The notes below the pieces were generated by a model. That model was not told the DNA's origin. It ran no database searches and saw nothing but the letters and a program-made list of their open reading frames with translations. From positions 8,773 to 72,772 of the forward strand of contig CAZLEV010000014.1 in the NCBI GenBank assembly GCA_964558645.1: a stretch of 64,000 nucleotides of DNA, read 5' to 3'. Every line of letters starts with the position of its first letter. Position 1 is the stretch's first letter. The position numbers and the translations under genes are program-made. Shown here in pieces: positions 39,506-60,325 of the stretch. The stretch comes from an uncultured archaeon. Lineage in GTDB: Archaea; Asgardarchaeota; Thorarchaeia; Thorarchaeales; Thorarchaeaceae.

Positions 39506-40462
39506 CTAACGTTTAGTGGCCCTACTCGGCAATGCACGCATGTAATAGGATGAGCCCCCATATTCGAGTTCCACAAGCTGGCCATCATCAATCAGACTAT
39601 GAATAATGGTCCAGTCGGACTCGGACTTGGCCAGCAGTTCTCGAACCGCATCTATACGCATTGGATGGACTGAGGTGATGCTGAGCAGGTCCTCTCTGGG
39701 GTCTCCAGTTGAAGCAAACTCATTTCCTTCGTAGCCGATAAGGTGTTCTACACGGTCGGTTCCAAGCTCATCAGCAAAACTCTGGAAAGCTTGGTTTATC
39801 ACTGACTCCGCGGGCGGGAACACTCCGTCCTCTGCAGGGGGCCTCGTGGGAATCGCAACATACGCTCTATCGATGCCCAGTTCACTCAAGAAACGTGCAG
39901 TCTTCCCGAACTCTCCCTTGTAATCAACCGTATTGACCAGCATTGTCTCCGAGAGTATCTTACCTTCGTACTCTTCACAGAACCTGCGGATTCCGTCCAT
40001 TACTCTTTCAGGGGCCAAGGAGCCATGAGGCCTGTTGACACGATGCCAGAGTCTGGAAGTCACAGCGTCAACTTTGATCGAAACAAGGTCCATATGATTT
40101 AGACGAGCTCGCACATCAGCATCCCAGAGAAGTGATGCATTAGTCAGAATTGCAAGGGGAATCTTGAAGTCCTTCAGCAAAGCAGCAGTATCTCCCAGAT
40201 TCGAATCGAGAGTTGGCTCACCATCAGGGACGAATGTGAGATAGTCAATTCTCTCATTGTTTTTCTTGGCATTGCTGACTTGCTGCGTCACTTTATCCAA
40301 AATCCGTTCAGGAGAGTAGAACGATCTCTGCTGTACCGTCAGATCAGTGGTTCGCCCCAGCTGACAGTAGGTGCATGAGTAGGAACAGGACTTCGCGCTG
40401 ATGTTGTTTATTCCAAGACTTCGTCCTAGACGCCTTGAGGGAACAGGACCGTAAGCGATCAT
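39506..40462 (-). CDS. Radical SAM protein (COG0731, TYW1-related)
   Basis: YGPVPSRRLGRSLGIN, CSYSCTYC, DGEPTL, TNASL. Confidence 0.9.
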   Translation of the reverse strand: MIAYGPVPSRRLGRSLGINNISAKSCSYSCTYCQLGRTTDLTVQQRSFYSPERILDKVTQQVSNAKKNNERIDYLTFVPDGEPTLDSNLGDTAALLKDFKIPLAILTNASLLWDADVRARLNHMDLVSIKVDAVTSRLWHRVNRPHGSLAPERVMDGIRRFCEEYEGKILSETMLVNTVDYKGEFGKTARFLSELGIDRAYVAIPTRPPAEDGVFPPAESVINQAFQSFADELGTDRVEHLIGYEGNEFASTGDPREDLLSITSVHPMRIDAVRELLAKSESDWTIIHSLIDDGQLVELEYGGSSYYMRALPSRATKR

Positions 40463-40543
40463 TGATGACCATTATCCAACCCTGGTATATCACTGAGAAC
40501 GTATCAATATTGTGTATTGACACAAAACTACACTGCCAGGATC

Positions 40544-41710
40544 CTATGGGGCCTGCAGAATAGATACCACCATATTGTTGCCAAATCCGCCGATGTTATG
40601 CGTCAGACCCACAGTGGGGGAGTCCACTTGGAGACCCTTGGGGGCCCTATCCTGCAGTTGCAGAACGATATCTCGAATCTGGGCCACGCCGGTTGCCCCC
40701 GTTGGATGCCCACGTGCCTTGAGACCTCCAGTAGGATTTACAGGCATGTCACCTGAAACCTCGGTCTTGCCATCCTTGACAGCGTCGATAGCATGTCCCC
40801 GGTCCACTATACCTATGTCCTCCATATCAATGAGTTCTAGTATAGAGAAGGCATCATGAAGCTCACATACATCTATGGAAGCAGGCTCAAGACTTGCCAT
40901 GTCAAATGCTCGTTGCGCGGCTACTACTGTAGCGTTCATCGAAGTTAATGACATCCTGTGCTGGATCGAGTGATAGTCCGTGGCATGTCCGATACCCAAT
41001 ACTCTCACAGCTAGGTCCTTGAGGTCAAGCTGTCTGACAAGACGCTCAGAGGACAGCACGACAGCAGCTGATCCATCACTTGTCGGGCAGCAGTCATATA
41101 GCGTCAGCGGATCAGCAACGAGTCGCGCACCGTTCACCTTCTCCACCGAGACCTCTTTCTGGAAGTGAGCGAGAGGATTCTTCGCACCGTTCCTGTGCGC
41201 CTTGACCGGCACAAGAGAGAGTTCCTCCCTTGTTAGACGATAGTCGTGCATGTACCTTCTGGTGACAAGAGCGGCTAATGCTGCAGGTGTACCTCCGTAT
41301 CGAATCTCATTCTCGTAAGACATCATCTTGGCAAGTATACCTGATGCCTCTGCTCGACCAACCTGAGACATCTTCTCGACACCAATGATAACGGCGGACT
41401 CAGACATACCAGAAGCTATGGATGCAAAACCTGCCTCGAATGCGCTAGACCCAGAGGAGGGGCCGCTCTCAACACGTGTTGCTGCAGCAGGTACGATGCC
41501 GATATGGTCTGCAAGAAGCGTGGATAGATGGCCAATCTGTGTAAACTCATCGGGATTCTGGGTTCCCACAAACAGCCTGTCGTAAAGAACGTCCTCTGCC
41601 TTAGCATCTTGGATGGCCTCAAAAGTAGCCGAAAGCGCGAGCTCAAGGATTGACTCCTTCAGCACTCCGAATGGAGTCATGCCAACCCCAATCACGTAGA
41701 CCGGTTCCAT
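40544..41710 (-). CDS. Thiolase-family protein lacking the canonical N-terminal Cys
   Basis: IGVGMTPFG, ELHDAF, GHPTGATG, HNIGG; RVESGPSSG in place of VENACASG. Confidence 0.9.
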   Translation of the reverse strand: MEPVYVIGVGMTPFGVLKESILELALSATFEAIQDAKAEDVLYDRLFVGTQNPDEFTQIGHLSTLLADHIGIVPAAATRVESGPSSGSSAFEAGFASIASGMSESAVIIGVEKMSQVGRAEASGILAKMMSYENEIRYGGTPAALAALVTRRYMHDYRLTREELSLVPVKAHRNGAKNPLAHFQKEVSVEKVNGARLVADPLTLYDCCPTSDGSAAVVLSSERLVRQLDLKDLAVRVLGIGHATDYHSIQHRMSLTSMNATVVAAQRAFDMASLEPASIDVCELHDAFSILELIDMEDIGIVDRGHAIDAVKDGKTEVSGDMPVNPTGGLKARGHPTGATGVAQIRDIVLQLQDRAPKGLQVDSPTVGLTHNIGGFGNNMVVSILQAP

Positions 41711-41725
41711 CGGGACGTACCTCCG

Positions 41726-42259
41726 TCACTCAATCAATATGACTAGGTCATTGGGAGTGACAGATGAACCCTCTTGAACGTTCACGTCCTTCACTACGCC
41801 ATCCTTCGTGGCCTTGAGCTCATTGAACATCTTCATTGCCTCAAGAATGCACAACGTGTCGCCACTACTCACCTCGTCCCCCACCGAGACATGGACTTCA
41901 GTGATCTTCCCCGGCATAGGTGGATAGACTCCGCCAGGCACCCTATCTGCCCCGTTAGCGCCGGTGGATAGTGTATCAGCCGTGGGTGTACTTGCCTTTC
42001 TCACGCGGGTAAATTCAACTGCTCGTTTTGTCCCATCGAACTCAAGATCGTAGCTATGTCCCGAACGGTTCAAGAGTCTGACCTCATGTTTCGAGTCGCG
42101 TTCGTTGACTGTCCATGCCTCACCGTCGTCAGGTGGTTGAGTGGTGAAGGTGAAGCTCTGGTCTCCGACCTTGACTACCAAGACCCCACCCTCGTCGAGC
42201 CTCTGGATGCTTACTTCAAGGTCCTTGCCGTCGATGCTAACGTTGTACTGCTGTGACAT
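41726..42259 (-). CDS. Biotin carboxyl carrier protein
   Basis: PMPGKI...LEAMKMFNE biotinylation motif; ATG at 42259 (MSQQY). Confidence 0.9.
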   Translation of the reverse strand: MSQQYNVSIDGKDLEVSIQRLDEGGVLVVKVGDQSFTFTTQPPDDGEAWTVNERDSKHEVRLLNRSGHSYDLEFDGTKRAVEFTRVRKASTPTADTLSTGANGADRVPGGVYPPMPGKITEVHVSVGDEVSSGDTLCILEAMKMFNELKATKDGVVKDVNVQEGSSVTPNDLVILIE

Positions 42260-42272
42260 CTCCTCGTTCCTC

Positions 42273-43790
42273 CTACATTCCGCCCCGCATAAGCTCCATT
42301 CGCCCAGCCATGGTCCATGCTGAACTACTCCGCCCCCAGCGTCCAACGCTGTAACCTTGCTGGTCATGAATACCTGCAGAAGCAATCTGCTGTTTCATAT
42401 GAAGAACAGCCGAGATGATGGCCGCTTCGTGCTCCAGAGTCATCTCTCCTCTGAGCTTCCTCTCCGCCTTGCGTTTCAGGAAATCAAGTGCATATTGTGG
42501 GAATAATGCATAGCTCACAAGGTCACGTTCCTCATGAGGGATGTCCTTTAGAGCCTCCCTTGCCTTGGGGAGCTCTGGCTCAAGTAAATCAGCAGGTCTG
42601 CAATCGAGGGGTTCTTCATCACCAATTGCCTTCTTCTTGACTTCGGGGTCAATCTCAGCTGGCGGGCGACCGTAGTAACCTCTGATGTACTGCTTGACCT
42701 CGTGAGGAATCATCTGATAGCGTTCTCCTGTGATGACATTGAGAGTAGCTTGAGTTCCCACAATCTGGCTTGACGGGGTCACCAGTGGAGGGTAACCGAG
42801 TTCTGCACGGACTCTAGGAACCTCCTTCAGTACCTCATCATATTTATCGAGTGCACCCTGTTCCCTCAATTGATTGTCTAGATTCGAGAGCATACCCCCT
42901 GGAATCTGAAATCGCAGAACCTGAGGATTCACGCCCTTGAGGCTTCCTTCAAAACCAGTGTACTTACCACGAATCTCCCGGAAATAATCCGCAATCTCAG
43001 CAAGCAGAGCCACATCCAGACCTGTATCTCGCGGCGTGTTTTTCAAGGCCTCAACGATAGACTCCGTTGCAGGTTGGGAAGTAGCAAGTGAGAGTGAGGA
43101 GATTGCACAGTCCACAACATCCACGCCAGCCTCGGCCCCCTTCATGTAGGCCATCGACGCCATCCCACTGGTGTAGTGAGAATGGAGCTGAACTGGAAGT
43201 CCAACATCGTCCTTCAGCATCTTCACGAGGTCATATGCCGCACTCGGAGAGATCAAACCCGCCATGTCTTTGATGCAGATTGAGTCTGCTCCCAGAGATG
43301 CCAGTTCAGCAGACTTCTCAGCGAACTTCTCAAGTGTGTGCACTGGACTGAGAGTATAACTAATACTGGCTTGAACATGAGCACCCTCATTCTTCACACA
43401 CTTGATTGCGTGTTTCATGTTCCGGATGTCATTCAGGGCGTCAAAGATTCGGAAGACATCGATACCGCCCTCTGCAGCATGATGCACAAAGGCCTCAACA
43501 ACGTCATCGGCATAGTGACGGTAACCCACCACGTTCTGAGCTCTTAATAACATCTGTAGACGGGTCTTTGGAAGGGCTTCGCGCAGAGCCTCAAGCCGCT
43601 CCCAAGGGTTCTCATCCAGAAAACGCATCATGGAATCGAAGGTGGCGCCTCCGAACATCTCGAGGGACCAGTAACCCACCTGATCAAGCTTCTCACAGAT
43701 TGGCAGCATATGTTCTGTCTTCATTCTTGTCGCGAGAAGAGACTGGTGTGCATCTCTGAGGACTGTGTCTGTAATCTGCAGCCTTGTCAT
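42273..43790 (-). CDS. Pyruvate/oxaloacetate carboxyltransferase (PycB/OadA/transcarboxylase 5S family)
   Basis: LRDAHQSLLATRM, GGATFD, IKDMAG, HSHYTSG, IPGGMLSNL, LVTPSSQIVG. Confidence 0.95.
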   Translation of the reverse strand: MTRLQITDTVLRDAHQSLLATRMKTEHMLPICEKLDQVGYWSLEMFGGATFDSMMRFLDENPWERLEALREALPKTRLQMLLRAQNVVGYRHYADDVVEAFVHHAAEGGIDVFRIFDALNDIRNMKHAIKCVKNEGAHVQASISYTLSPVHTLEKFAEKSAELASLGADSICIKDMAGLISPSAAYDLVKMLKDDVGLPVQLHSHYTSGMASMAYMKGAEAGVDVVDCAISSLSLATSQPATESIVEALKNTPRDTGLDVALLAEIADYFREIRGKYTGFEGSLKGVNPQVLRFQIPGGMLSNLDNQLREQGALDKYDEVLKEVPRVRAELGYPPLVTPSSQIVGTQATLNVITGERYQMIPHEVKQYIRGYYGRPPAEIDPEVKKKAIGDEEPLDCRPADLLEPELPKAREALKDIPHEERDLVSYALFPQYALDFLKRKAERKLRGEMTLEHEAAIISAVLHMKQQIASAGIHDQQGYSVGRWGRSSSAWTMAGRMELMRGGM

Positions 43791-43873
43791 TGTGACCCGC
43801 GGGTCATGTCACATCTTGCAATATAATAGCATCTGTCTATGATACACAAGCATCTCTCCTAGCAAAGAGGCTC

Positions 43874-44146
43874 TTACTCGAACTTTCCCCAGTGCTTTGT
43901 GATATCGAAATACAGCACAATCTCTGTTCCATCTGCAAGGCTGATATCCATCTGGTCGATCCAGCGATCATCGATATTCAGTAACGTCTGCCGCACCAGA
44001 TTCCAGTCAGTGCCTTTCACTCCATACTTTCGGGAGAGATAGGAGTACTCAGCCTCGATGGCCTCCGTGTGACCAATCACGTTAGATATGACTATGGGGT
44101 CGTCTGTTGATGACCCATGTCCCTCGTATTTCACCATCGCAAACAC
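43874..44146 (-). CDS. Small hypothetical protein
   Basis: Protein-like composition; G.GSS.DDPIVI, EY.YL and YFDIT look like family motifs. Confidence 0.65.
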   Translation of the reverse strand: MFAMVKYEGHGSSTDDPIVISNVIGHTEAIEAEYSYLSRKYGVKGTDWNLVRQTLLNIDDRWIDQMDISLADGTEIVLYFDITKHWGKFE

Positions 44147-44323
44147 CTAATCGCGCCTTGTAACTTGACTATTTGGAGTCTATTACGATAGATTCTCAGA
44201 AGCATTGAAACCGGACTAGCTTTGGCAAATCCATGTACCACCTTGTCGTGTGGGCATCTACTGCAATATCGCTGGCACGAGGATAGAGGTTCTGGTCTTG
44301 AAGAAAGAAAAAAGAGAGGAGAA

Positions 44324-44349
44324 CTCGAACCCCTGAGATGGGGCTCGAG
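44324..44349 (-). terminator. Putative terminator hairpin
   Basis: CTCGAGCCCC-ATCTCA-GGGGTTCGAG on the minus strand, followed by a T-rich run. Confidence 0.55.
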
Positions 44350-44363
44350 CACAGAATGTGAAA

Positions 44364-45152
44364 CTATCTACGCTTGATGACCCAGAAGATTGCCACAACC
44401 GCCACAATGCCGATTGCGAGCAACAGAAGTCCACCACCGTCACCAGGAACTAGAGAACCTTCTGCCAGATTCGTGTACGCCACGTACACAGGATCCTGTT
44501 GAACTCTCAGACCGTTCCAGTCCGGAAAGGTCACCGAGTACCACCATTGACTGCTATGGAATGCAGTCTGTGCGTTGGTAACAAGATGCTGTGGACTATT
44601 GTAGGTATTCCTGACCTGAGCAGATAGGCCATAGGCCATGTGAGCGAAGAGGAATGCAGACAGGGGTGCTTGCCATGCTATGAGCAGGAAGTCCCCAGGA
44701 TTCGTAGCCAGCAGAGCATTCAGAGCATTGACTCCCTGCAAGACTGTGATTCCGCTTGTTTCGTTTATCAGGTCGTATTCTCTACCTAGACCGATGTCGA
44801 AGGCACGCTCCTGATCATCACCAATCGTTATGGTCAGGTTGTCATCCAGCAATTCCGTGCTGGTCGGAGGAGTAATCTTGTTTCCACTTGAGCTGCGGGT
44901 CACGTTGTAGTTGCTCTCAAAGGTCGAGAGATAGTGAACCGCACTTATCGCCATGCTCTCGCTAATGACCTCCGAGGGGTCCTTGTCCTGAAAACCCATC
45001 CGAACGCGATTTACCTGTCCTATGGTATAGACGGTCTCAGCGTGTACCTCGCCCGTTGTCTGATCAATCTGGATGTCATATTCAATGACTATCTCGCTGA
45101 ACAGCACAGTCATGAACGGGAACAGAAGGCTGAGCCAGAAGCCACCCTGGGC
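44364..45152 (-). pseudogene. 3' remnant of a C-terminally anchored surface protein, truncated next to the TnpB element
   Basis: C-terminal TM plus KRR but no signal peptide; frame stays open upstream of the ATG (AQGGFWLSLLFPF) up to a TGA about 25 nt beyond the tnpB stop. Confidence 0.65.
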
Positions 45153-47470
45153 TGAAACAACCGTTCATTGTAAGTTGGACAAGCTTGGACATCAAGCAGT
45201 CCGTCCAGGAGCGGCACTGGACTGGTGATTGTGCACGTGAATGATGTTTCGTGCCGCATTCACATCGGCATGGAAGTGCTCCTCACACCTCCCACAGTAG
45301 AAGTACTCCCCACCCCTTCTCTCCCTCGTGGAACTCTCATGCTCCACCCGGACTCCCCGCCCCCCACAGACATGGCAGGTCTGAGAGGTCCACGCCGGGC
45401 TCACCGTCCAGATCCCACCGTAGCGGTGGCCCAGAGTCTGCCGCATGTACCGTATGGTGTCCAGCACCTTGGACCAGAGATTGTTCGATAGCCGCCACGA
45501 GTGAGTGCCATAGCCCCTGGGCGGCTGGTAGTTTTTGAGGTTCTCCAGATACAGGGTCTTGACCCCGTGGCGCTCACAGAACCAGACGGCCTCTGACGCA
45601 ATCTGTCGGGCTATCTCCCTGTCCAGCCTGCGAATCTTGCGCCAGATGGCTGCAAGACGACGCTCCTTCTTCCTCAGATGCCCGGGCCTTGGACAGTCCT
45701 CCCCGTGCTTCTTCTCCCAGTTGTTCCGCATCAAGGCCACTCTCGATGACAACTGCCGGGTCTGCTGTCGGAGAAGATCCCTCTTCTCGACCAGCCCTTC
45801 AAGAGAGATGAGCTCATCGACATACTCTTCCTCACCATCTCTCACCGAGAGCACGATAGGCACACGGATTCCTCGGTCGGCACCGGCTCTCCTGTTGTAG
45901 TGCCGTTCACCCAGGACCGCATCTACCATCTCTCGAGTTGGCGGGAGGAAGGGGATCTGGAGTTCTACTCTGTGCTCACGAAGCAAGAGGCGAGGTGGGC
46001 CGCAGGTTCTGGACTTCCTGAGCTGCTGCACCTTCTCCTTCAGTTGTGCAAGCTGCTCAGGGTCCGCATCCTTTCGGTTTCTCCACTTCGCCAACTGGTA
46101 GGTAGTATGCTGGAGTTCGATGGTGTTCATGAGCTGTTCGTGTTGATCCTCGAACCGCACGGCCCGGAATCGCAGCTTCTTGGCTCGCAGGTGCTTCCCA
46201 GCTCGCTCTGCCTCATCGCCCTTCATCCGGTCCTTGACGGCAGCCCGTGGGAGCCAGTCCAGAAACCTGAGGCCAAGGGTTCTGACTCGGAAGGGCGAGG
46301 CATCATGCTCCGCTCCCTCCATCGCCTCTGGCAGCTTCAGGAAGAACAGCACCTCGTTCTCCTTCTCCAAGTCCTGTGAGTACCAGTAGCCCTGACCGGG
46401 AGAGTTCTCGGTGCTTGCTGAGAAGTCCTCGGTGTGGGAGTACATCCTCGGGACCTTGAAGGGATAGCCCTCCGTGGTGAACTGATGAAGGAGGGCCTGA
46501 ACGGAAGCCATGGCCTCTGAGCACTCCTTGTTATCTTTGACGTACCGTCGAACACGGCGCCGCTGCGATGGTCTGGAACCAAGGGGCTCTCCGCGTTCGC
46601 TCAGGATGTGCTCATCGAGAGCTCGACGAAGCTGCTTCAGAACAGAGAGGGCGTAGTAGTAGCCTGAACCATTGTTCTTCGTGCTCTCGCATCTGGAGCG
46701 CAGATCTTTTACCATGTCCGAGGGGATGTATTTGTTCTTCAGTAATCGCAGAAGAGTATCCTGTTCCTCATTGAGAAGTCCGATAGCTGTCTTCATGAGC
46801 TGACGCCGTAGCCAGTTGGACTGGATGATCCGAGCCGCCTGCTCCAGGACGTTCCGGTAGAGTCTCTCGAAGCACTGCTTGCTGATATCGGGATTGTCCT
46901 TGTATGCAAGATACTCCTCCTTCTTCAACAGGACATATCCCTGTCCTCGATAGGAGTTCAGCTCGTCTCCAAGGAAGTCAATCCGTTCACGGGAAGCATA
47001 CACACGCTCGAGAACGAGATTCACGAGCTCTACATACTTCTCGAAGTATCGACCCAGAAGAGAGAGGTCCACATCCCTGACCTTTCGCCCGGTAGCCGCC
47101 TCGATATCTTTTCGTACAGGTTCAGGACTCCAGCGGCGAAATCGAGGATCGGGTCGCTTCCCTTTCCCCTTCGTGTTCACCTCTCTATCTACCGAGCAGA
47201 GGGTGAACGACTGTACCAGATACTTCAGTCCCGTATTCTGATGCGCGGTTGATGGAAACAATATAAGTTTGCCATCCATTGTGAGATGCTTCTGGGAATC
47301 ATCAGACTCCTCTTGCTTCCGGGGACGGCGCCGGACTACCTTGGTCATCAATCGTGCACCTCTCTTCTGTCTGGGTCTGATAATATAATCTCATGAACCA
47401 ATATAAGTTTATCAAGACGAAAAGGCAATTAGAGCATTATGAAGCCTATTTCGCTTCTATAAGGCTCTCA
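45153..47470 (-). mobile_element. IS200/IS605-like (TnpB-only) element; boundaries approximate
   Basis: tnpB-like gene; candidate right end ...GGTTGTTTCA at 45153; imperfect hairpin at 47431-47468 upstream; no tnpA seen. Confidence 0.55.
45192..47351 (-). CDS. tnpB: Large TnpB/Cas12-like RNA-guided endonuclease (719 aa)
   Basis: RuvC-I GADRG (D492), RuvC-II LYLENL (E603), Zn finger TSQTCHVCG...CGRC, RuvC-III HADVNAARNI (D696). Confidence 0.9.
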   Translation of the reverse strand: MMTKVVRRRPRKQEESDDSQKHLTMDGKLILFPSTAHQNTGLKYLVQSFTLCSVDREVNTKGKGKRPDPRFRRWSPEPVRKDIEAATGRKVRDVDLSLLGRYFEKYVELVNLVLERVYASRERIDFLGDELNSYRGQGYVLLKKEEYLAYKDNPDISKQCFERLYRNVLEQAARIIQSNWLRRQLMKTAIGLLNEEQDTLLRLLKNKYIPSDMVKDLRSRCESTKNNGSGYYYALSVLKQLRRALDEHILSERGEPLGSRPSQRRRVRRYVKDNKECSEAMASVQALLHQFTTEGYPFKVPRMYSHTEDFSASTENSPGQGYWYSQDLEKENEVLFFLKLPEAMEGAEHDASPFRVRTLGLRFLDWLPRAAVKDRMKGDEAERAGKHLRAKKLRFRAVRFEDQHEQLMNTIELQHTTYQLAKWRNRKDADPEQLAQLKEKVQQLRKSRTCGPPRLLLREHRVELQIPFLPPTREMVDAVLGERHYNRRAGADRGIRVPIVLSVRDGEEEYVDELISLEGLVEKRDLLRQQTRQLSSRVALMRNNWEKKHGEDCPRPGHLRKKERRLAAIWRKIRRLDREIARQIASEAVWFCERHGVKTLYLENLKNYQPPRGYGTHSWRLSNNLWSKVLDTIRYMRQTLGHRYGGIWTVSPAWTSQTCHVCGGRGVRVEHESSTRERRGGEYFYCGRCEEHFHADVNAARNIIHVHNHQSSAAPGRTA

Positions 47471-47542
47471 TAACTCTTTTCTTTTCTCTGTTTGGTCACA
47501 GTCTATTTATAAGTAACTTTGACTTTAGACTCTAGAAGTATC

Positions 47543-50500
47543 ATGGGACGCAGACCGAGATTGCTTCGCCCGAATGCTGTGCTAGCGAGAGCGAAGCATG
47601 CTGGTCTCATGGCCCTTGTCAACCTCCTTGGCCCTAGAGCCAGTGGCGACCTCGTGAAGTACTACCGTTCAACAACAAAGATGTGGGATGCCGTTCGATC
47701 TGCTCTTCGGGCTCAGGGCGGAGAGCGAGAGGACTACCTGGTTCTTAACGACACGGAGCCAAACATGCGGAAGTCCTTTCTCCAGTTCCTGTGGCACAGC
47801 ACTGTACCCTACGGCAACAAGGAGTTCAAACGGGTCTACGACTGGACTGAGGGTACGGTGGGGCCGCTCAATGTCCTCTTGAACTACGCGGGAGCACGAC
47901 TAAGGGACCTGGCAATGACGCGGTATCCCTTTCCTGAACCACGGGTCTTCCAGATAGCAAGGTTCCCGGATGGCACGGTGAGGGTCTATTCTCTAGCCCT
48001 CGTCAACCGGCTGAAGGCAAAGGGTCTGTACCCACCAAGTGACTTCGGCAAGAACACCGAAACCTCCTGGAAGGCGGGCTACAGCGGGACAACAAAGACT
48101 CCACAGGTCTACCTTGCGCACCCCACTCTCCCAAGCCTTGATTTTGTCGATATGATACGCGCCCACGTTGTCGAGCTCTGCAGACAGTGCTTCATCTACA
48201 GTGTTCCTCGCACTGAGGCCCACCGCTACATCCGACTCCTGGTCTACCGGCTGCGACCCTTCCTCGACTGGGTCTACACTGAGAGGGCCACAGGCCGACC
48301 CAACTTCAACCGGGATGCCAACAGGGAACTCCGAGAGATCGTACTGGAGATCAGAGCGTTGTACGGACTTCATGCCGGGCAGAGACAGTCGATCACTCGG
48401 TCCCTAGATATACCATCGCCAATCACTCTTGGGGATATCCGTAAGGCGGTAAAATGTCTCCCGCAAAAGACGGTGGATGAGGGCGAGATGACACTCTATC
48501 AGAGCATGAAGGACCAGATCGATGCCGGGACTGTGGTGGAACGGGATGCCGACAAGCTCACTGACCAGCTCTCCTCATCGACTTCACAGGAGGGCAACCG
48601 CTGGCACAGGATCCTCCTCTCGGGCTTCCACCACCCTGCCTCACTGAAGCAGGTGGTCTTTGCCGGGGACACCATGTTGGACCAGCCCTCCTCCGTCTTG
48701 GCTGTCGCAGAGCTTCCCGTAGACTCACGACGGGGACAGGCTGACCTCGTGTTCTTCCTCCGCCGAGAGCTCGAGAAGCGGACCATCTGGACACCGATCA
48801 TGATTCTTGAGGTCAAGACCAAGAGTGCCTTCGATATCAACCTCTACGGTGTTGAGGTGGGGAGCAGAGAGGAGAACGAGTATGCGCCCGCCTTCTTTGC
48901 GTGGAAGAGGGCACTCACAGGGGGCGAGTGGAATGCATTGCTCACATCACCGCCGAAGAAGAGCACAAAAGGTCAGCTCGATGCGTACGAACAGGCCATC
49001 ATCAGGGAGTACAAGCGCACGGCGGACTTCGACCCGACACCGCCCACCTCTCTCTGGAAGGGGGTCATCGTCCTGGATGCTGACCAGATTCCCATTGATG
49101 CATACTCAGCATTTCAGACTCTCATCGAAAACCTGCTGGTGGAACTGACAGGTGACACTTTCCAGGCCCCACCAAAGACTATCTCACAGGTGCTTGATAC
49201 AGACAGTATCTTGCCTTCTCCCCGGGTGGCGCTGCTCCTTCTGCCAGACGCAGGCCCTGATAGAATCCTCTCTCAGAGAGCCCCTCCGGCAGAGTTGGTC
49301 TCCGAGGACCCCTTTGCGGATCGCATTACAGACGACCGCATACTCACAGTCTACGTGTCCGTTCCCTCCCCGACATCATCAGGTAAGACGTCCGCATGGC
49401 AGTCGTCCAACTGGCACCTTCTCCACCACATCAGAGAGTGCAGAGAGGCCTCATCGCAAGAGATAGGTGTGTTCTGGCTGGATCTCATGGGGGACTACCA
49501 GACGGCTCAGCTGGCCAATCTACGGTTTGGACTTGACAGACTCCTTGCCGAGAGGAAGATATCCCGGCAGGAACACGGCGAGCTGGTCGCCGAGGTGGAG
49601 GATATCTCCTTCGTTGACCTTCATGTTCACACAGAGAAACTCCTGCGGGGCGAGAACGATTCCATAGAGGGCATGCTAACCACTATCTGCAATGCTGTTG
49701 AAACCGAGGTCGAGAAGATCATCATCATCGATGGGTGGGACGAACTGAGTAAGATGGTTCCCAATCATTCTCGTCATCTCCTACGCGCCCTGGAAGTGCA
49801 GCTACTGGATACGCTCCCCTCGACAGACACGAACATCATCTGGATCGATACCGGGACCGAGGACACCCTGACCTCCGCAGACTGTCAGCGAGGATGCATC
49901 AAACCTCTCCGCCATGACTCTCCCCGCAGGACGCACCTCGACGAGGTGATCTATAACCTCCCGTCCCCTCCGCGCGTCTTCGGCAACCTGTCCCCCTGGC
50001 GTGAGGACATACGAGTCATTGTTCAGGACACCCCCACATCGGCACCCCCATGGAGAACCACCATCCACGTCCCTCACCTTTTGGGTGCAGCAGAGCGATT
50101 CCGGGGGGCCTCCTCGAGGCATGGTTCACTCTCACAGGATGATGTGGCAAGGTTGGAGGTGAACGACTCCAGGATGTACGCGCGGAACATCAACCTCTCC
50201 TCCATCCAGTCCGGGCTGGGGAACCTAACCATGGACACGCTCGACAACGTCATGGAACAGTCCTGCAGTCTGGTTCCGAGTCTATGCCGTGCGAGAGACG
50301 GCCAAGAACAGCAGCCGCAGGAGGCACTGGAGATTCCGCAGATACTGGTGCAGGGTATCAGCTCTGCCAGGGCAAGTACCCAGCGGCAACGCCTCCGGTT
50401 CCAACCGGCTCGACCGCCTCCAGACCCCGTACGCTCTAAGGACAGGTATGTGGAGTCTGGGAAGATCACACGGCGGTGGTTCTATGAACGGAACCCCACA

Positions 50501-53167
50501 CCCCGGCCTGAGATACCTGCCCGGCCTCGTAGCCTCTGTCGCCCACCAGTTCCTTCTGAATTGGATGCTGTGACTCTTGACAGCTGTAGCACACGGAGAT
50601 GGGAACTCAAGCGTTTCCTCACAACTGCAAGATACTTGGCAGCACGACCCCTAGGCAGGACCCTCAAGGGTGTCTGCGAGGAGATTGCCGACCTCTGTCA
50701 GGATGTCCTCTCAGACTCTGAAGACACTGGGGATGGCGATGCCTACTTGGATACCCTGTCCTTGGTCCGAGATATCATCCTCTCAGAAACATCCCTATCT
50801 CCGGTCTGGGAGAGACTCCGACCCGGACGGGAGCAGCTTCTCGATCTCCTGAACTCTGACAACAGGAAACATCTGGAGACCATCACAAAAGAGATTCCGG
50901 ATGCTCTTCTTCTCTATGGAAACAACCTGTTCCTCATGGTCTGCGCGGCTGCGCAGGAGGAGAACTCTTGTCACTACGAAACGCTGTGGGCAGCGCTGGC
51001 TGAGTGGACGCTCTACCAGATGGGACTACGGTCCAAGGACAGTGCCTTCAAATCGAAGTATGACCTCTATTCCATCTACCGGACCCTCCGGTCCCGCGCA
51101 CGGACTCTATCTGACCGGAACATTCCGGAGACCTCCCTCTCACAGGCATCCACTGGCCAGATCATCTGGTGGGAGGAAGGAGATAGCAGCAAAGGCCTCT
51201 TGGTGTTTCCTGACCAGCGGGGAGAGATGGTCTCAGGCCTGGTCACCACCGGGGCCGATGCGTCTCTCCGACCGACGTGGTATCGATGTGATATGCATCC
51301 AGGCTCACTGAGGGAGTACTCAAGGAGTACTCTAAGCTCGGAGGAACGGACTACCATCATGCTTTCGGATGTGGCTGAGCACAGGATACTTTGGCTGCCT
51401 ACTGATGATGATGAGTGGTGGCCGTACCTCCTCACCCACGGATGCCCCGACAAGAACCAGCGGACCATTCCCTGGCTGAAACTCACTGATCCCTTCACGG
51501 TCCCCGATATCACCCAGAGTCTGCTCATCCCGCCAACACCAGACAGTGACCCCGGTCAGGCCGTGGACCAGTATCTTCGCGAGCTTGGCCAGCTGGAGAG
51601 ACCCGTCACGCCTGTCAAGCTGGAGGTCTCTGTGGATCCTCGTCGAGGGGTGTATGTGGTCCAGTTCACGGGGGATGGCATCTCTGTGGAGGAGGAGTTC
51701 AGCGACACTGATGAGCTGGTGGGGGTCCTCCGCTATCCCATCCGAAGAGGGGTTGGATACGACACTGCTGCCGGGGCGGTCACGTGGGACCACAAAGAGG
51801 ACATCACGTACACGGATGACTCCCTGACCTGCCTCATCCCGCTGGTCTTGAAGAGCAGGTTTCTCCCTGACCACTACTCCTATCCAGAGAGCTGCGCTGA
51901 GTTGTTGGCCGCATCGGCGGGCGGGGATGTGACGCTGACGATATGGACTGAGAGGAGTGGAAGCGGGTTTCGGCTGCAGCTTCAGGGACTGGAGGATGAC
52001 TCACCCCTCAGATCCCTCGAAGAGGCCTCTCCCTCTCTGTACGAGGTGGGGCTCCTTGCCGAGTGCGAACAGCTCATCGACACAAAAAACCGGCTTCGCC
52101 ACGAGGTGGAGCTGGACGTGTCAGGCCACTTGGACCTCAGTGCGTCACAGGTGGAACGGTATCCTGCCCTCTCTCATGCACTGGCAGAGGTGGATCGGGA
52201 TGCCTTCGACTGGAGTCGTGGCTCGTGGGGTGTCCGGTGGAGCTATGTCTCACGCGAAGACCGGCTGACGTGGAGCATCGTGGAACTCTCCTCTCGGCGA
52301 GCATGGCTGGACCAGACCTATACGTTTCAGCCTGATCCTAGTTCCAGCGTTGATACCGTCCTCGAGGCGTTCAAGCAAGACGTCGCCGCTGTGGTGCCTC
52401 TCGGACATCTTGATGGGTTGGAGGACTCAATGGCAGAGCTCAGGGATGAGCTGGAGAGTCATGGCTGGAGGGACACACCTCCGACGTACGTAGGCGAGGT
52501 CCAGCACGGAGTGGAGGAGTATACCCTGGTCATCAGCAGGGTGGAGAGGGATGGCTCATTGAAGCGGGTGGAGGCCATCAGTCTCACCGCTGAGCGGGTA
52601 GAGGAACTCCTTGAGGTACTTGACCACGAGGGTTTCGAGGCCTGGCCGTACTCTCTTGAGAATCAGGGGGAGATACGGGAGGCGCTCAAGGCAATCCATG
52701 AGGGAGTGGATCTCTCTGACGTGGCCGTAAATGAGGACGATGTACTCGCGAGGGAGTACGAAGAAGTCATCACAGAATATAGAGAGGAGGTTCTAGAGGC
52801 GCCTGAGGAACTGAAGTATCTAGCAAAGACGTTGGTCTACTACGCTCAGCTTTGCGCTGAGAGGGGGCAACCGGTGGAGGCGCTGCAGCTCGTAGAGGAA
52901 GGGATCGGTCTGCTCAGGGAGGAAGACCTGAGCGACATCATCGTCCTTCAGGCTCTTGCGAGAGGACTCATCCTCAGGTCCCACTGCCTCCTTCATCTTG
53001 ATATCGAGAAACGAAACGAAGTCAAGAGAGATATGGAGGAGTCGAGAGGGCTCTTGACAGAGCTTCGAAGACGTGGAGAGAAGATCACTGCAGACACCCT
53101 GGCAACCAAGATGCGAGCCATTGAGCCACAGATTCATGATGATTCAGACGGAATAGACGGACGTTGA
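47543..53167 (+). CDS. Giant multidomain protein: PD-(D/E)xK nuclease, P-loop NTPase-like domain and C-terminal TPR
   Basis: GQADLVF...ILEVKTK...QLDAY; PTSSGKT and IIIIDGWDEL; C-terminal LAKTLVYYAQLCAERGQPVEAL; ATG at 47543 preferred over TTG at 47519. Confidence 0.75.
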   Translation: MGRRPRLLRPNAVLARAKHAGLMALVNLLGPRASGDLVKYYRSTTKMWDAVRSALRAQGGEREDYLVLNDTEPNMRKSFLQFLWHSTVPYGNKEFKRVYDWTEGTVGPLNVLLNYAGARLRDLAMTRYPFPEPRVFQIARFPDGTVRVYSLALVNRLKAKGLYPPSDFGKNTETSWKAGYSGTTKTPQVYLAHPTLPSLDFVDMIRAHVVELCRQCFIYSVPRTEAHRYIRLLVYRLRPFLDWVYTERATGRPNFNRDANRELREIVLEIRALYGLHAGQRQSITRSLDIPSPITLGDIRKAVKCLPQKTVDEGEMTLYQSMKDQIDAGTVVERDADKLTDQLSSSTSQEGNRWHRILLSGFHHPASLKQVVFAGDTMLDQPSSVLAVAELPVDSRRGQADLVFFLRRELEKRTIWTPIMILEVKTKSAFDINLYGVEVGSREENEYAPAFFAWKRALTGGEWNALLTSPPKKSTKGQLDAYEQAIIREYKRTADFDPTPPTSLWKGVIVLDADQIPIDAYSAFQTLIENLLVELTGDTFQAPPKTISQVLDTDSILPSPRVALLLLPDAGPDRILSQRAPPAELVSEDPFADRITDDRILTVYVSVPSPTSSGKTSAWQSSNWHLLHHIRECREASSQEIGVFWLDLMGDYQTAQLANLRFGLDRLLAERKISRQEHGELVAEVEDISFVDLHVHTEKLLRGENDSIEGMLTTICNAVETEVEKIIIIDGWDELSKMVPNHSRHLLRALEVQLLDTLPSTDTNIIWIDTGTEDTLTSADCQRGCIKPLRHDSPRRTHLDEVIYNLPSPPRVFGNLSPWREDIRVIVQDTPTSAPPWRTTIHVPHLLGAAERFRGASSRHGSLSQDDVARLEVNDSRMYARNINLSSIQSGLGNLTMDTLDNVMEQSCSLVPSLCRARDGQEQQPQEALEIPQILVQGISSARASTQRQRLRFQPARPPPDPVRSKDRYVESGKITRRWFYERNPTPRPEIPARPRSLCRPPVPSELDAVTLDSCSTRRWELKRFLTTARYLAARPLGRTLKGVCEEIADLCQDVLSDSEDTGDGDAYLDTLSLVRDIILSETSLSPVWERLRPGREQLLDLLNSDNRKHLETITKEIPDALLLYGNNLFLMVCAAAQEENSCHYETLWAALAEWTLYQMGLRSKDSAFKSKYDLYSIYRTLRSRARTLSDRNIPETSLSQASTGQIIWWEEGDSSKGLLVFPDQRGEMVSGLVTTGADASLRPTWYRCDMHPGSLREYSRSTLSSEERTTIMLSDVAEHRILWLPTDDDEWWPYLLTHGCPDKNQRTIPWLKLTDPFTVPDITQSLLIPPTPDSDPGQAVDQYLRELGQLERPVTPVKLEVSVDPRRGVYVVQFTGDGISVEEEFSDTDELVGVLRYPIRRGVGYDTAAGAVTWDHKEDITYTDDSLTCLIPLVLKSRFLPDHYSYPESCAELLAASAGGDVTLTIWTERSGSGFRLQLQGLEDDSPLRSLEEASPSLYEVGLLAECEQLIDTKNRLRHEVELDVSGHLDLSASQVERYPALSHALAEVDRDAFDWSRGSWGVRWSYVSREDRLTWSIVELSSRRAWLDQTYTFQPDPSSSVDTVLEAFKQDVAAVVPLGHLDGLEDSMAELRDELESHGWRDTPPTYVGEVQHGVEEYTLVISRVERDGSLKRVEAISLTAERVEELLEVLDHEGFEAWPYSLENQGEIREALKAIHEGVDLSDVAVNEDDVLAREYEEVITEYREEVLEAPEELKYLAKTLVYYAQLCAERGQPVEALQLVEEGIGLLREEDLSDIIVLQALARGLILRSHCLLHLDIEKRNEVKRDMEESRGLLTELRRRGEKITADTLATKMRAIEPQIHDDSDGIDGR

Positions 53168-53176
53168 GAATATTCC

Positions 53177-53419
53177 TCATCCAAGAGTCTTACTTGCACC
53201 CAGTTCAATGGTGCGGGCTATCTGCAAGCGGTTCTTGTGAATGGCCGTGGTGATGCGGTAAAGCGACACGATGAGGCTGTTGGTCTTGTACGTCTCGTAG
53301 AATCTCTCCTTTTGCTCGCGGAGCAGGTGAGCCGCTTCAGGGAATTGGTATTCCTCTCCGGTGGTCGATACCAGCTCGACGAGCGCATCAGCAATCTGTT
53401 GGTCGATGGACGAGTCCAT
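53177..53419 (-). CDS. Small helical hypothetical protein
   Basis: 80-aa ORF with plausible composition, convergent on the giant gene. Confidence 0.5.
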   Translation of the reverse strand: MDSSIDQQIADALVELVSTTGEEYQFPEAAHLLREQKERFYETYKTNSLIVSLYRITTAIHKNRLQIARTIELGASKTLG

Positions 53420-53517
53420 GATACAGCCATCCTCTCAGACTCCTGCACTGGCCTATATAGACTGCGCCATTAGAAGGCGATATCGTTTTGAGTTCGCTCT
53501 TTCAATTGATGGGTATC

Positions 53518-53964
53518 ATGACTCTTGAACGGGGAGTACTGGAGAGCATCTGCAGACTTGTGATGGAGCTGAGCATGAGAAAGCGTCGTGGGCTACACAC
53601 CATGACACTGAGGAGGATCAAGAGGCTCTTGGAGACGATGGGCTGGTCGGTCATCCTAGAGTTCGAGACCTATTTCGACACGGTCATCAGATACAGGAAA
53701 AAGTTGTCGCGGGTGCGTGGCTTTATCGATCTCCTTGCTCGGAAGGGAGAGAGGCAGGTCATTGCTGTGGTGTTCGACAACACCAACGTCCTGAAGTATC
53801 GGAGCATCGAGAAACTCCTGCAACATCCGGGGATGGTGATAGGAATGACCGCCGGTCGCTATGGGGTGGACAATCGGGCACGGATTGAACGGGTCATGCG
53901 GGAACGGGGGCAGTGGAGATGCTCGGAGTTCTGGCTGATAGAGGTGGGTCAGGAGAGGATTTAG
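53518..53964 (+). CDS. Hypothetical protein, degenerate restriction-endonuclease-like fold
   Basis: LETMGWSVILE...GFIDLLARKG...IAVVFD resembles a PD-(D/E)xK core without a canonical ExK. Confidence 0.5.
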   Translation: MTLERGVLESICRLVMELSMRKRRGLHTMTLRRIKRLLETMGWSVILEFETYFDTVIRYRKKLSRVRGFIDLLARKGERQVIAVVFDNTNVLKYRSIEKLLQHPGMVIGMTAGRYGVDNRARIERVMRERGQWRCSEFWLIEVGQERI

Positions 53965-54113
53965 CGATTTGTCGGCGATTTCAGTCCCGTGTCAGAGGAG
54001 TGGGTTCTGGACTCTCAAGGTCGGCTGAACCTGCAGTAATGTTTCATAGCTAGATTAGGAATAGTGGCTAGTCATGAAGAGGTTTATGAACCCTCAGGCA
54101 TCTTTTCTAACAG

Positions 54114-54623
54114 ATGGTAGTCGTGGACGAATCTCATCTAGAACACATTCACAGGGTTCGGGGAGAGCAATGGACCATCATCATCACAGCGATTCTTTTT
54201 GGCTTGACTCTTAACCTGACATCCGACTTCATCAGTTCAGTTTATGACGTGTCTGTTGATTCAGCTACTTTGGCAGTTAGAGGTATTGTTGCAGGTCTAG
54301 CCTCTCTCGTCACAATAGCCACGATGTGGTGGCTAGCAGTTCGCAGTCTGAGTCCTCTATGCAAGGTACAACGTGATATCCAAGTTTCATATTTCTTCGA
54401 TACTGACACTGGATATCCGCATGATGTTCCCGGATACCCTCCCACGGAGAGGGTTCTTTCCGAGTTTGCTCGATCTACAGAGAAGCAAAAGGAGGAATTC
54501 AGTCAGGCAATAAGGAAGGCGGGCGAATCGACGAAGTCTGCCACATCGGAGCTCCCAAATCTGGTTCCTTTCCTCGAACTTCTCACAATGCTCAGGCGGA
54601 ATGAGCTCAGAAAACCTCGTTGA
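54114..54623 (+). CDS. Two-TM membrane protein, possibly 3'-truncated
   Basis: Two hydrophobic helices; overlaps the convergent ORF by 237 nt. Confidence 0.5.
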   Translation: MVVVDESHLEHIHRVRGEQWTIIITAILFGLTLNLTSDFISSVYDVSVDSATLAVRGIVAGLASLVTIATMWWLAVRSLSPLCKVQRDIQVSYFFDTDTGYPHDVPGYPPTERVLSEFARSTEKQKEEFSQAIRKAGESTKSATSELPNLVPFLELLTMLRRNELRKPR

Positions 54624-54935
54624 CTTAAGGGCATTCCACCGAGTAGGCAGGATTATGTAGTAATGTTCACCAGTTGCCATGTCCCGTGCCACCCGGGTGA
54701 CATCCCTCAATGATTCCTGCAAATAACACTCCATCCTCTCTCGTTCCCTCTTGACCAGGAAGTACTGCTCTAGGCTAATTGCTCCCAGAAAGCCCAATAG
54801 CGAACCGATTATATCAGGGCAGAATTGATGATATCCAAAAACGGAGGGCACTATGAGGAAACTTATTGATATGGCAAAAACGTTCACAGCCGCCTTTCTC
54901 CACCAATTGAGCCGTGAATCGAATGATGTTGACAT
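54387..54935 (-). CDS. Two-TM membrane protein, 3' end doubtful
   Basis: Plausible N-terminal ~115 aa; the tail reads antisense through the neighbouring ORF. Confidence 0.45.
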   Translation of the reverse strand: MSTSFDSRLNWWRKAAVNVFAISISFLIVPSVFGYHQFCPDIIGSLLGFLGAISLEQYFLVKRERERMECYLQESLRDVTRVARDMATGEHYYIILPTRWNALKSTRFSELIPPEHCEKFEERNQIWELRCGRLRRFARLPYCLTEFLLLLLCRSSKLGKNPLRGRVSGNIMRISSVSIEEI

Positions 54936-55032
54936 GATTAGGTTCCCAATCGCATTTCAGAGCTTGGGCATGTTAGTATCACCTAATGTTTCTGCGCCGT
55001 TTCCGTGAACGTGAAGCCGAAAATATTAGGAT

Positions 55033-55170
55033 TTACGATTTCTGACCCTCCAGTATATCCTGAATCACCATCAGTTTCTCCGTCATACGCTTCCCCTTCT
55101 CGGTGATCACCAGAAAGGTCTTGGGTCGAGCGCCCTCCTCCATCTCCTCCCGGATGATGCTTATCCATGG
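55033..55170 (-). pseudogene. C-terminal fragment of a winged-helix regulator
   Basis: IIREE..GARPKTFLVITEKGK wing motif with no preceding HTH. Confidence 0.5.
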
Positions 55171-55247
55171 CGATTTGCTCTGAATTCCCTGACTTGATTT
55201 AGGTTGTTTCATGCCTTCGAGTTGCATAGGGTGCAATAAAAAAAGAG

Positions 55248-55269
55248 GAGAGAAGCACATGCTTCTCTC
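55248..55269 (-). terminator. Putative terminator hairpin
   Basis: GAGAGAAGC-ACAT-GCTTCTCTC followed on the minus strand by a T7 run, just after the 55277 stop. Confidence 0.65.
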
Positions 55270-55276
55270 TAATTGA

Positions 55277-55969
55277 TTATCTGAAGAACCTCCAGGAGAT
55301 TGAGTGTGTGTCCCAATCTGCGTTGCCTTGTTGTGATGTGGTCTTGTAAAAGTCCGAGCCCATATACAGTCCACATCGTACCCATAGCCCTACGTAATAC
55401 CAGTTGGATGTTGAGAACTCGTAGTAGTCTTGGTAATCCGTGCCGTCGTAAAGTTCTTTATAGGCGGTTGTTGAACCCCAGTCTTGGTTATCCTTGTAAC
55501 CCCATGTAACACTGTCACCATCGGTGTAAGAGCTCCATCCTCGCCTTATTGGAGGATTCTGCCCCATATCAACCACTACATACTGAACTGTCCAACTTGC
55601 AGAAGCACCAAATACAGCGCTAATTGCATATTGGAAATCGGCATCGATGCTTAGCTCCAGGTATTTGTATGTGTTATCAGCAGGTTTAACTTTGATAAGA
55701 CAGTAGAAGTCCACATACTCAGCAAATCCCCATTCCATGTGTCCATGGATATCAAGATCCCCCTTGTATTCATCGACGTTAACGGTGGTCCAGATAGCGG
55801 AGCTATACCCACTTACTACAAAGGCAACCATTTTGGAATCTCCCGAGTATATTGTTCCTGTGCGCGCCTGGGTTCCCGCAGGTTCATGTAGAGCCTCTAC
55901 AGGACTTAGCAATCCAAGCATCACTACAAGGATAGCCATGGCTAACGCTATTCGCAGTCTTTTCTCCAT
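55277..55969 (-). CDS. Secreted beta-rich hypothetical protein
   Basis: MEKRLRIALAMAILVVMLGLLSPVEA signal peptide; Tyr/Trp-rich mature part. Confidence 0.75.
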   Translation of the reverse strand: MEKRLRIALAMAILVVMLGLLSPVEALHEPAGTQARTGTIYSGDSKMVAFVVSGYSSAIWTTVNVDEYKGDLDIHGHMEWGFAEYVDFYCLIKVKPADNTYKYLELSIDADFQYAISAVFGASASWTVQYVVVDMGQNPPIRRGWSSYTDGDSVTWGYKDNQDWGSTTAYKELYDGTDYQDYYEFSTSNWYYVGLWVRCGLYMGSDFYKTTSQQGNADWDTHSISWRFFR

Positions 55970-56077
55970 GTTTATTCCCCCCACCCCGCGTGTGGGCGTC
56001 CTCAATTCGCCCCTTCTTCCACACGAGATGCCAACGAATCTATTAGCTCCATACTATATATGTTTTGTCAGTTATTT

Positions 56078-57064
56078 GGCTCTGTGTGGAAAGTCACCTC
56101 CCGACACACTCCAGATAGTTCAGTCGACTCACATTGTGCAGGACCACCTTGAGCAGCAGCTCTCGCCGTCATTCCTTGTATCTCCGTGACTGGAGGCTCC
56201 CACCGAATCGCACCTTCATCATGCTGAACACGGTTTCCACAAGACTCCGCTGTCCATACTCGTGAACCCGCCTCCACTCCACAGGGTCTCGTCGGTACTC
56301 CAGGATCAACTCCCTGTAGCCACGATGTCCCCGGGACCGGGCACGCAGCCGCTTCTTGGGCTCGATGGCAGGATAGGCTCCCAGGTCGGCGATGTGCCCG
56401 ACGTTGTCTCGGGAGATGTAGGCCCTGTCACCATAGACAGTCTCCAGCTGGGACCAATCGACCCGTCCCATCAGGGCGACCAGATGTCGTGCATCACCAC
56501 CCGGCCGAGCCTTGACTCTGACCCCATGGACCATGAGGGTGTCGGTGTCTACAGGTGCGTGGAGGGCCGTGAACCGCCGTCTCCGCGTCCTCTTGAACCG
56601 GACAGTCTGCCACTCGCCCCCGGTGGCGTGAGAGAACCCGGTGGCATCCACCGCGATCCGCCTGGGAGGGGGACGTCGCCGGGCAACGGTCTCGTACAGT
56701 CGGTGAAGGCCATGGGGCTCCAGTCGTTTCAGCGCTCCGTTGAGGAGGGTGTGACTGGGTGGTCGCTCCAACCCGAGTCGATGGAGGAGTTCTGGCTGAA
56801 AGGCCAGCCACGCCACGAAATCACGATAACCCATGCCGGAATCGAATTTGAGTCCGAAGAGGACAAACAACACCGGGAGGGGAAACTCCACTGGTCGGCC
56901 ATAGCGAGACCTGACATCCGGAATGGTATTGCAAAGGCTCATAAGTTCTTGAAGCAGGAAGTGAAAGCGGCGAGCTTTGGCCGCTTCGTATGAGACGGTG
57001 TAATTCGTAATTCATGTGATGCGGTCAAATTCGCCTCTGAATCCTTGTATTATTTTACAGAGCC
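56078..57064 (-). mobile_element. IS5-family insertion sequence (about 987 bp), decayed
   Basis: Terminal inverted repeats GGCTCTGT (56078) and ACAGAGCC (ends 57064) around a DDE transposase; no clear target duplication. Confidence 0.8.
56094..57015 (-). pseudogene. IS5-family DDE transposase with premature stop and probable 5' frameshift
   Basis: IAVDATGF, YGDRAY, RSLVETVFS; in-frame TGA at 56169-56171 followed by RRELLLKVVLHN; 7-bp tandem duplication at 57000-57013 near the ATG. Confidence 0.8.
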
Positions 57065-57097
57065 TCTATTCACAGAAGCTATATAAGCAAATACTGA

Positions 57098-58258: not shown

Positions 58259-58294
58259 GCTAATTAGGCATAGCCCTAATCATGCAAGAAACAC

Positions 58295-58666
58295 ATGGTC
58301 GCCGTGAGGAAGTCAGATGCGGTCGCGTTTCGCAACCCGACACAATCTACGTTCAATCGAATCTCGCCCGAGAGCATGAACCAAGGACCGGGATCCTCAT
58401 CTCGTCTGACTGGGTGGTGGACGGTCATGCCGGCGTCTACGGGGTACGAACTGCGGGTGGCAGACAACGGGCCGGGCATCCCGGAGGATATCAGGGTGGG
58501 GCTCCTTCAACCCTCGCGACGGAGAGCTGGGCTGGGCCTGCACATGTCGTGGCATATCGCTCAGAAGTACGGGGGCAAGTTGCAGATCAAGGACCACGTG
58601 TCAGGCGACCCCGCGCAGGGTGCTGAGGTGGTTGTGTGGCTTCCTCCAGTGGTATGTGATGAATAG
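58295..58666 (+). pseudogene. Histidine kinase HATPase_c C-terminal fragment
   Basis: LRVADNGPGIP (G1) and GLGL (G2) boxes; no H-box or N-box upstream. Confidence 0.75.
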
Positions 58667-58670
58667 GGAC

Positions 58671-59340: not shown

Positions 59341-59352
59341 ATGCAAGAGCCC

Positions 59353-60275: not shown

Positions 60276-60325
60276 CTAGTCACCTCCTTGTATTCTCTTT
60301 TTACCCATTTCGGGATTGCAACCCG

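Follow-up and report, generated by a model that had tools for sequence, protein, structure and literature searches.

TnpB proteins associated with aCas1, a giant Cas1-fold protein, were catalogued computationally in Asgard archaea as Cas1H-Asgard-1 and -2 (Altae-Tran et al. 2023, PMC10691335). In that work aCas1 was proposed as the transposase of the aCas1-TnpB loci, and their mark downstream of tnpB was given as a T, a hypervariable region and GTTCACTCA. Among IS607 elements, CboIStron has a GG core and a GGG-type motif, and its CboTnpB discriminates self from non-self at position -3 (bioRxiv 10.1101/2023.11.20.567912). Other relevant systems act as repressors. For instance, tracr-L is a natural single guide with which S. 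pyogenes Cas9 represses its own promoter (PMC11417352), TldRs are nuclease-dead, TnpB-derived RNA-guided repressors of host genes (bioRxiv 10.1101/2023.11.30.569447), and Arc is a protein repressor of the IS605 tnpB promoter (bioRxiv 10.64898/2026.09.24.754181). Currently, little is understood about how transposons restrain an active RNA-guided nuclease, and the sole recent report found describes a separate protein repressor.

The window, i.e. the whole stretch of 64,000 nucleotides that was analysed, encodes a TnpB that a sequence-only reading had described as oversized, catalytically intact and lacking both a TnpA and a CRISPR array. Judged by comparison with 153 related tnpB loci, it is no stand-alone nuclease but belongs to a Thorarchaeota transposon of the IS607 family, in which it occupies the right end (Table 1). 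The account we favour, and consider fairly likely, is that it serves as a homing nuclease with built-in RNA-guided self-repression within a cargo-carrying IS607 transposon. The kind of element is already known; the second, mRNA-embedded guide would be the new part.

Table 1. Features of the tnpB-aCas1 locus, in window coordinates.
Feature	Position	Strand	Basis or remarks
Host gene, 3' part (~aa 204-474 of a conserved gene of 450-475 aa), cut by the insertion	44364..45160	(-)	Empty allele in G001
Predicted homing guide, made of host flank; would target empty site G-GG|TTGT	45145..45160	(-)	Empty allele in G001
3' guide scaffold, predicted; right end of the element	45161..45221	(-)	5-bp stem and 8-nt loop (45221-45204), pseudoknot, ends CGG
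Tandem subterminal repeats, 10-bp period, mirrored at left ends	45175..45191	(-)	Putative role in TnpA binding
tnpB, 719 aa	45192..47351	(-)	RuvC D492/E603/D696, C4 zinc finger; aa 1-36 predicted disordered
Long-helix insertion of ~80 aa between WED strands, ~aa 367-446	46014..46253	(-)	AF2 model
Expanded all-helical REC-like region, ~aa 69-294	46470..47147	(-)	AF2 secondary structure; REC/WED names inferred from element order
Candidate internal guide, ~16-17 nt	47255..47271	(-)	Positions 2-13 and 15-17 match the upstream target
Second scaffold copy, tnpB codons ~6-27	47272..47335	(-)	Hairpin 47335-47318, pseudoknot tail 47277-47272
Putative self-target (47411-47395) with TTGA motif before it	47395..47415	(-)	AT-rich tnpB promoter region
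aCas1, 1,882 aa	47519..53167	(+)	Head-to-head with tnpB; domains from fold search and motifs

The IS607 assignment follows from three features: the ends have a GG core, a congener has an empty site, and relatives encode an intact serine TnpA. The right-end motif lies at a constant distance past the tnpB stop codon at 123 unique junctions, and what follows GG|Y there is random; junction statistics give C-GG-Y at right ends and G-GG-T at left ends (31 cases). Seven distinct right-end junctions occur in the genome itself, each ending ACAATSARCGG and followed by unrelated DNA. The window copy ends at 45161, which is 31 nt past the stop rather than the ~40 nt of the sequence-only reading. In the congener G001, the conserved host gene carries an empty allele with a single GG, and comparison of empty and filled sites reveals insertion without target duplication. 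The 5' part of the split gene is absent from the assembly, and an HMM and motif search of the window and of contigs C9, C27 and C32 did not find the left end of the window copy. The order of the flanks suggests an island of more than 40 kb that would span a contig gap. The subterminal 10-bp-period repeats are probably TnpA binding sites.

In relatives, complete elements measure 7.6-9.4 kb and run from the left end through serine tnpA, aCas1 (opposite strand) and tnpB to the right end; they occur both with and without aCas1. The MerR-HTH serine TnpA proteins of L008, L035 and L118 exceed the NCBIfam IS607 cut-off. The assembly (92.8% complete) has no match to PF00239 or to a Y1 transposase, while three left ends in the genome run into broken IS607 tnpA genes and contigs C1, C2 and C5 carry remnants of tnpA with frameshifts or truncations. 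The reported lack of TnpA therefore applies to the window but not to the element, which is of IS607 type, with these relics in the genome and an intact TnpA in relatives. An array is truly missing, as had been stated: no CRISPR-like repeat family occurs in 40000-53000, and complete bounded elements contain only ORFs between their ends. The sole Cas1 of the genome lies in a separate cas locus on a different contig. With no adjacent array, the window TnpB falls outside type V CRISPR-Cas12, and with its RuvC residues intact it is not a TldR.

The ORF was correctly called as an oversized, intact TnpB. It starts with TTG, followed by ATG at codon 2, and has 491 aa ahead of RuvC-I, close to the ~490 first counted. 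Its zinc finger consists of CxxC 659-662 and CxxC 686-689, and finger and catalytic triad are invariant across 83 homologs (48-88% identity). PF07282 matches above its cut-off, and the NCBIfam guided_TnpB model, with a cut-off of 100, scores the protein at 72.6 bits. At least 250 members make up the family; almost all measure 680-760 aa, and their source labels name Thorarchaeota. In a profile search of 1.84 billion representatives, out-of-clade relatives aligned only over the RuvC/zinc-finger half, and relatives of intermediate size were not found. The AlphaFold model that the sequence-only reading had proposed (pLDDT 81) has a Cas12f/TnpB fold with large helical insertions. A helical lobe is enlarged, a long helical segment is inserted between WED strands, and a tail of 36 residues is disordered. 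Its top structural match is Cas12f (AsCas12f, PDB 8dzj; Z 18.9, rmsd 4.0 A over 380 residues, 13% identity). The two share their fold but differ in that the window TnpB has neither CRISPR array nor tracrRNA and carries ~300 extra, mostly helical residues.

The phylogeny proposed alongside the model was only partly informative. A quick tree gives support of 100 both to a separate clade of the 719-aa type and to a second Asgard TnpB clade of ~560 aa, with neighbouring branches left unresolved; given this backbone, the hinted derivation from Cas12 or Fanzor finds no specific tie to either origin. Fanzor proteins have a eukaryotic or giant-virus host, and RuvC-II is rearranged in Fanzor1, whereas the window family is archaeal and keeps the canonical D-E-D order.

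Like other TnpB loci, the element ends in a structured right-end scaffold followed by a variable flank. The conserved 3' RNA spans ~49-69 nt, mostly 61, in the homolog comparison, and a pseudoknot forms between its loop and the final 6 nt of the element, with one mismatch in the window copy. Pairing of this pseudoknot holds in 97.3% of cells, with compensatory changes of several types and 50 double-sided changes against 17.8 in shuffled controls; relatedness among homologs is still present in these scaffold and guide statistics. The scaffold was expected to be short or to lie largely within the ORF, and its ~61 nt do overlap the ORF end. Synonymous conservation of tnpB stays at background (~0.3) except in codons 1-30 (0.76, with 6 codons scored) and from about codon 706 to the end (0.59 in the last bin, near 1.0 at codons 711-714). 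An Rfam search of the scaffold, RAGATH-18 included, gave no match at E up to 5. Further 3' RNA structure may exist without sequence conservation, and the enlarged helical lobes of TnpB would probably stand in for RNA scaffold.

A second scaffold copy at the 5' end of tnpB has the same stem, loop and pseudoknot as the 3' copy, with compensatory changes of its own; its pseudoknot forms 5.83 of 6 pairs, compared with 5.10 after shuffling (maximum 5.30). The guide that follows matches a site 116-154 nt upstream on the same strand at 11 or more of 14 positions in 47 of 53 non-redundant divergent loci, against 8.6% in cross-locus and 8.5% in shuffled controls. Guides are highly varied (46 distinct 12-mers in 49 loci). 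Matching runs at 0.86-1.0 over positions 2-13 and drops to 0.04 at position 18; it extends over no more than positions 2-17, and 63% of loci have a mismatch at position 1. Guide and target also change together: across 24 disjoint nearest-neighbour pairs, both changed 96 times, the guide alone 4 times and the target alone 19 times. Paralogs in the genome of the window match their own promoter at 12-13 of 13 positions and each other's at 6-9. The promoter target begins with T, directly preceded by a conserved YTG(G/A/T), and this T(-3)/T(+1) combination is missing at the own template in 48 of the 53 5' copies. The target holds or directly precedes a TATA-like run ~60-70 nt ahead of the tnpB start codon; in the window, a second such run follows it at about 47388-47381.

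These observations can be joined into one model. TnpA would excise the element and insert it at G-GG|Y sites without target duplication, as the sequences of ends and empty site indicate. The RNA of the right end, in which ~16 nt of flank follow the ~61-nt pseudoknot, would guide TnpB to the empty donor joint, and cutting there would let repair restore the element, as in other IS607 systems. Meanwhile, the 5' end of the tnpB mRNA would fold into the second scaffold, followed by the guide that matches the promoter region of the same element. Carrying this 5' RNA, TnpB would bind the promoter without cutting, given the short match, the usual mismatch at position 1 and the different adjacent motif. 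By analogy with tracr-L and Cas9, promoter-bound TnpB would repress its own transcription, a copy-specific negative feedback. IS607 anatomy, empty site, intact active site, two scaffolds and guide-promoter covariation can all be read from the sequences themselves, as can the guide-promoter match, whereas binding and repression are what we infer. The main doubts about self-repression concern the two adjacent motifs and a few perfect matches of 17 nt. The motif before the promoter target is YTG-G/A/T and that at the donor joint GGG, so that one TnpB must accept both, and the 17-nt matches (in L034 and L045) are long enough for cutting in other TnpBs. The TATA-like run is also not always within the target.

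Some of the same features would fit a true guide with another job, such as controlling the divergent aCas1, activating transcription, acting as a decoy that limits active TnpB, or cutting the element. The target does sit between divergent genes, in some subgroups it lies upstream of the TATA-like run rather than on it, and certain matches are perfect over 17 nt. However, the module is kept in elements without aCas1 (e.g. L018, L037 and L088), and the target is ~60-70 nt from the tnpB start but more than 100 nt from that of aCas1, which leaves this reading unlikely. Somewhat more doubtful still is a reading without any RNA role, in which the two segments are a DNA operator pair or a duplication whose copies local gene conversion holds alike. 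Although both segments are AT-rich direct repeats ~140 nt apart, the internal copy starts exactly at the end of the covarying pseudoknot, in the register of the right-end guide, and the match stops at 16-17 nt with the frequent mismatch at position 1 noted above. A self-repressing guide remains our preferred reading. In the literature searched on TnpB guide autoregulation or Thorarchaeota TnpB, a search that was incomplete, an mRNA-embedded self-targeting guide in tnpB is not described.

In the ~560-aa aCas1-linked clade, 6 of 15 loci (L166, L173, L175, L181, L183 and L184) carry a 12-15-nt TATA-like repeat shared by the upstream region and the gene start. Self-targeting may be common to that clade as well.

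The partner protein begins 168 nt upstream of tnpB on the opposite strand; the sequence-only reading had overlooked both this partner and the second scaffold. Residues ~13-258 of aCas1 form a Cas1 catalytic-type helical domain in the structure model (pLDDT 85), with a Cas1 fold at Z 13.2 and rmsd 3.8 over 178 residues. A sequence-level homology search against Cas1 gave no support, so the probable Cas1 assignment comes from the fold search. Conserved PD-(D/E)XK motifs of Cas4/RecB type (G406xxD409, E431xK433 and Q486xxxY490) point to a Cas4-like domain, one that 900-residue fold searches of aCas1 did not match. Residues ~604-900 adopt a RecA/KaiC fold (Z 12.4) with an unconserved Walker A lysine, and the C-terminus is TPR-like (weak match). 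The description of aCas1 reportedly goes back to Makarova et al. 2020. It stands head-to-head with tnpB at ~67 of the 153 loci, many of the remaining loci being truncated. Seen from the other side, a TnpB is head-to-head in 28 of 30 aCas1-anchored loci, 11 of them of the 719-aa-type clade and 17 of the unrelated ~560-aa clade.

This pairing across two unrelated TnpB clades points towards aCas1, not TnpA, as the mobiliser (the proposal of PMC10691335), perhaps under the guidance of TnpB or as a writer of new guides. Further agreement comes from the Cas1-like domain with its invariant E/H/D residues, from intact aCas1 in an assembly with no intact TnpA, and from flanks that in some cases match tRNA genes behind GGG. 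Nevertheless, the ends are asymmetric IS607 ends with a GG core and no target duplication, tnpA abuts the left end, and the guide at the window site is plain host flank rather than an acquired spacer. IS607 ends enclose aCas1 in at least 13 bounded elements, but a similar number lack it, as do all of the ~20 mini-elements. Mobilisation by aCas1 is accordingly improbable, and since bounded IS607 elements exist with and without it, aCas1 is read as coupled cargo and not as the transposase of the 719-aa-type clade. There is also a slim chance that the partner works with TnpB in a multi-guide system, either by rewriting guides or by inserting DNA where TnpB marks a site, for example at tRNA genes. 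Guide rewriting would explain the fast paired turnover of internal guide and promoter, and such an RNA-guided Cas1 integrase, if real, would occur in the closest prokaryotic relatives of eukaryotes. Finally, a domesticated CRISPR-less host nuclease resembling Cas12 or Fanzor is barely credible: the 719 aa, the Cas12f structural matches and a few relatives with degenerate ends beside tRNA genes would suit it, but the genome has seven right-end junctions, the gene occurs patchily and in multiple copies, the insertion has split a host gene, and the empty site contradicts the idea for the window copy.

The gene-less mini-elements (185-210 bp) share the right end, and their left ends begin with GG and carry mirrored 10-bp-period repeats. 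They sit on contigs C1, C2, C6, C13, C15, C25 and C28, keep both ends and the hairpin-pseudoknot, and might act as a trans source of guides. Two of them share 99.5% identity; that such a near-identical pair occurs in an assembly without intact TnpA counts against the favoured account. Contig C16 has two 55-bp fusions of left and right ends. On contig C5, a bounded element of 4.9 kb (222111-227012) has a broken tnpA and tnpB flanking two intact host-like cargo genes. In variant elements (L006, L025, L036, L040, L124 and L131), a ~330-aa protein, RadA-like by eye at its N-terminus, and/or a conserved ORF of ~220-250 aa occurs and aCas1 is oriented like tnpB, possibly a recombination module. The right-end flank of L064 duplicates the initial 11 bases of the left end.

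Of 122 right-end flanks, 16 match a tRNA gene at 11 or more of 13 positions (control, 7 of 150), namely at L003, L005, L011, L012, L020, L021, L031, L096 and L137 and on contigs C2, C6 and C16. The majority follow GGG and fall at the 5' end of tRNA-Lys or tRNA-Ile or inside tRNA-His; in many of these cases the right end is shortened and an intact tRNA is found 45-375 nt away. Two explanations are available: insertions into tRNA genes that took place long ago, or tRNA-directed guides favoured by selection. Beyond aCas1, the window is island-like (53170-64000), with a broken ORF at 54114-54623 (paralogs of 327 aa), a piece of a transposase at 56169-56942, DDE-type by its motif, a relic of a different cargo ORF near 58282, and a repeat-rich 739-aa ORF in common with contig C9. 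On contig C27, a copy of 93% identity is followed by a 286-aa ORF (21483-22343) that is PCNA-like by eye.

If the favoured account holds, the clade points to RNA-only restraint, in which the mRNA of a nuclease is its own repressor guide, and orthogonal guide/promoter pairs would let several copies coexist. It is also a natural case of protein growth with RNA shrinkage and no CRISPR array. Handles for an Asgard system come from exact ends, an empty site, an adjacent motif that can be predicted, intact elements of three genes and a scaffold whose ~61 nt are few by TnpB standards.

Compared with the Cas1H-Asgard loci of PMC10691335, the Asgard host, a TnpB beside a giant Cas1-fold protein and the existence of two TnpB groups are shared. 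The distinct Asgard clade of the sequence-only reading does exist, separate, uniform in size at ~700-730 aa and from Thorarchaeota, but it is not new, since the TnpB/aCas1 pairing is published there; in all likelihood the 719-aa type is already catalogued. That reading had allowed for a known clade of such size, and the computational catalogue of aCas1-paired TnpBs in PMC10691335 partly bears this out. GTTCACTCA occurs in 4 of 4 copies of the ~560-aa clade, whereas the 719-aa-type loci have no exact match and scattered one-mismatch matches in 11 of 136. The 719-aa type is probably the other Cas1H-Asgard group, and only probably because the main text of PMC10691335 does not say which group carries GTTCACTCA. 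That text describes neither the short pseudoknot nor the internal self-targeting guide, and IS607 ends with a serine TnpA challenge its proposal of aCas1 as transposase for the 719-aa-type group.

With the IS607 elements CboIStron (bioRxiv 10.1101/2023.11.20.567912) and ISFba1 (PMC11061315), the element shares a MerR-HTH serine TnpA, a GG core, absence of target duplication, a G-rich motif at the left flank and CGG at the scaffold end. It differs in its TnpB of 719 aa rather than about 390, its conserved scaffold of ~61 nt, 5-6 kb of cargo and the second scaffold in the coding 5' end. TldR has in common with it TnpB-derived RNA-guided repression, as proposed here, and Arc the repression of a tnpB promoter; unlike these, the window TnpB retains D/E/D and would need no extra protein. 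The likeness to tracr-L lies in an active RNA-guided nuclease with a natural guide against its own promoter, here a predicted one. In contrast to tracr-L, the nuclease is the TnpB of an archaeal transposon, its guide RNA would be the protein's own coding mRNA, and guide and target would form copy-specific pairs.
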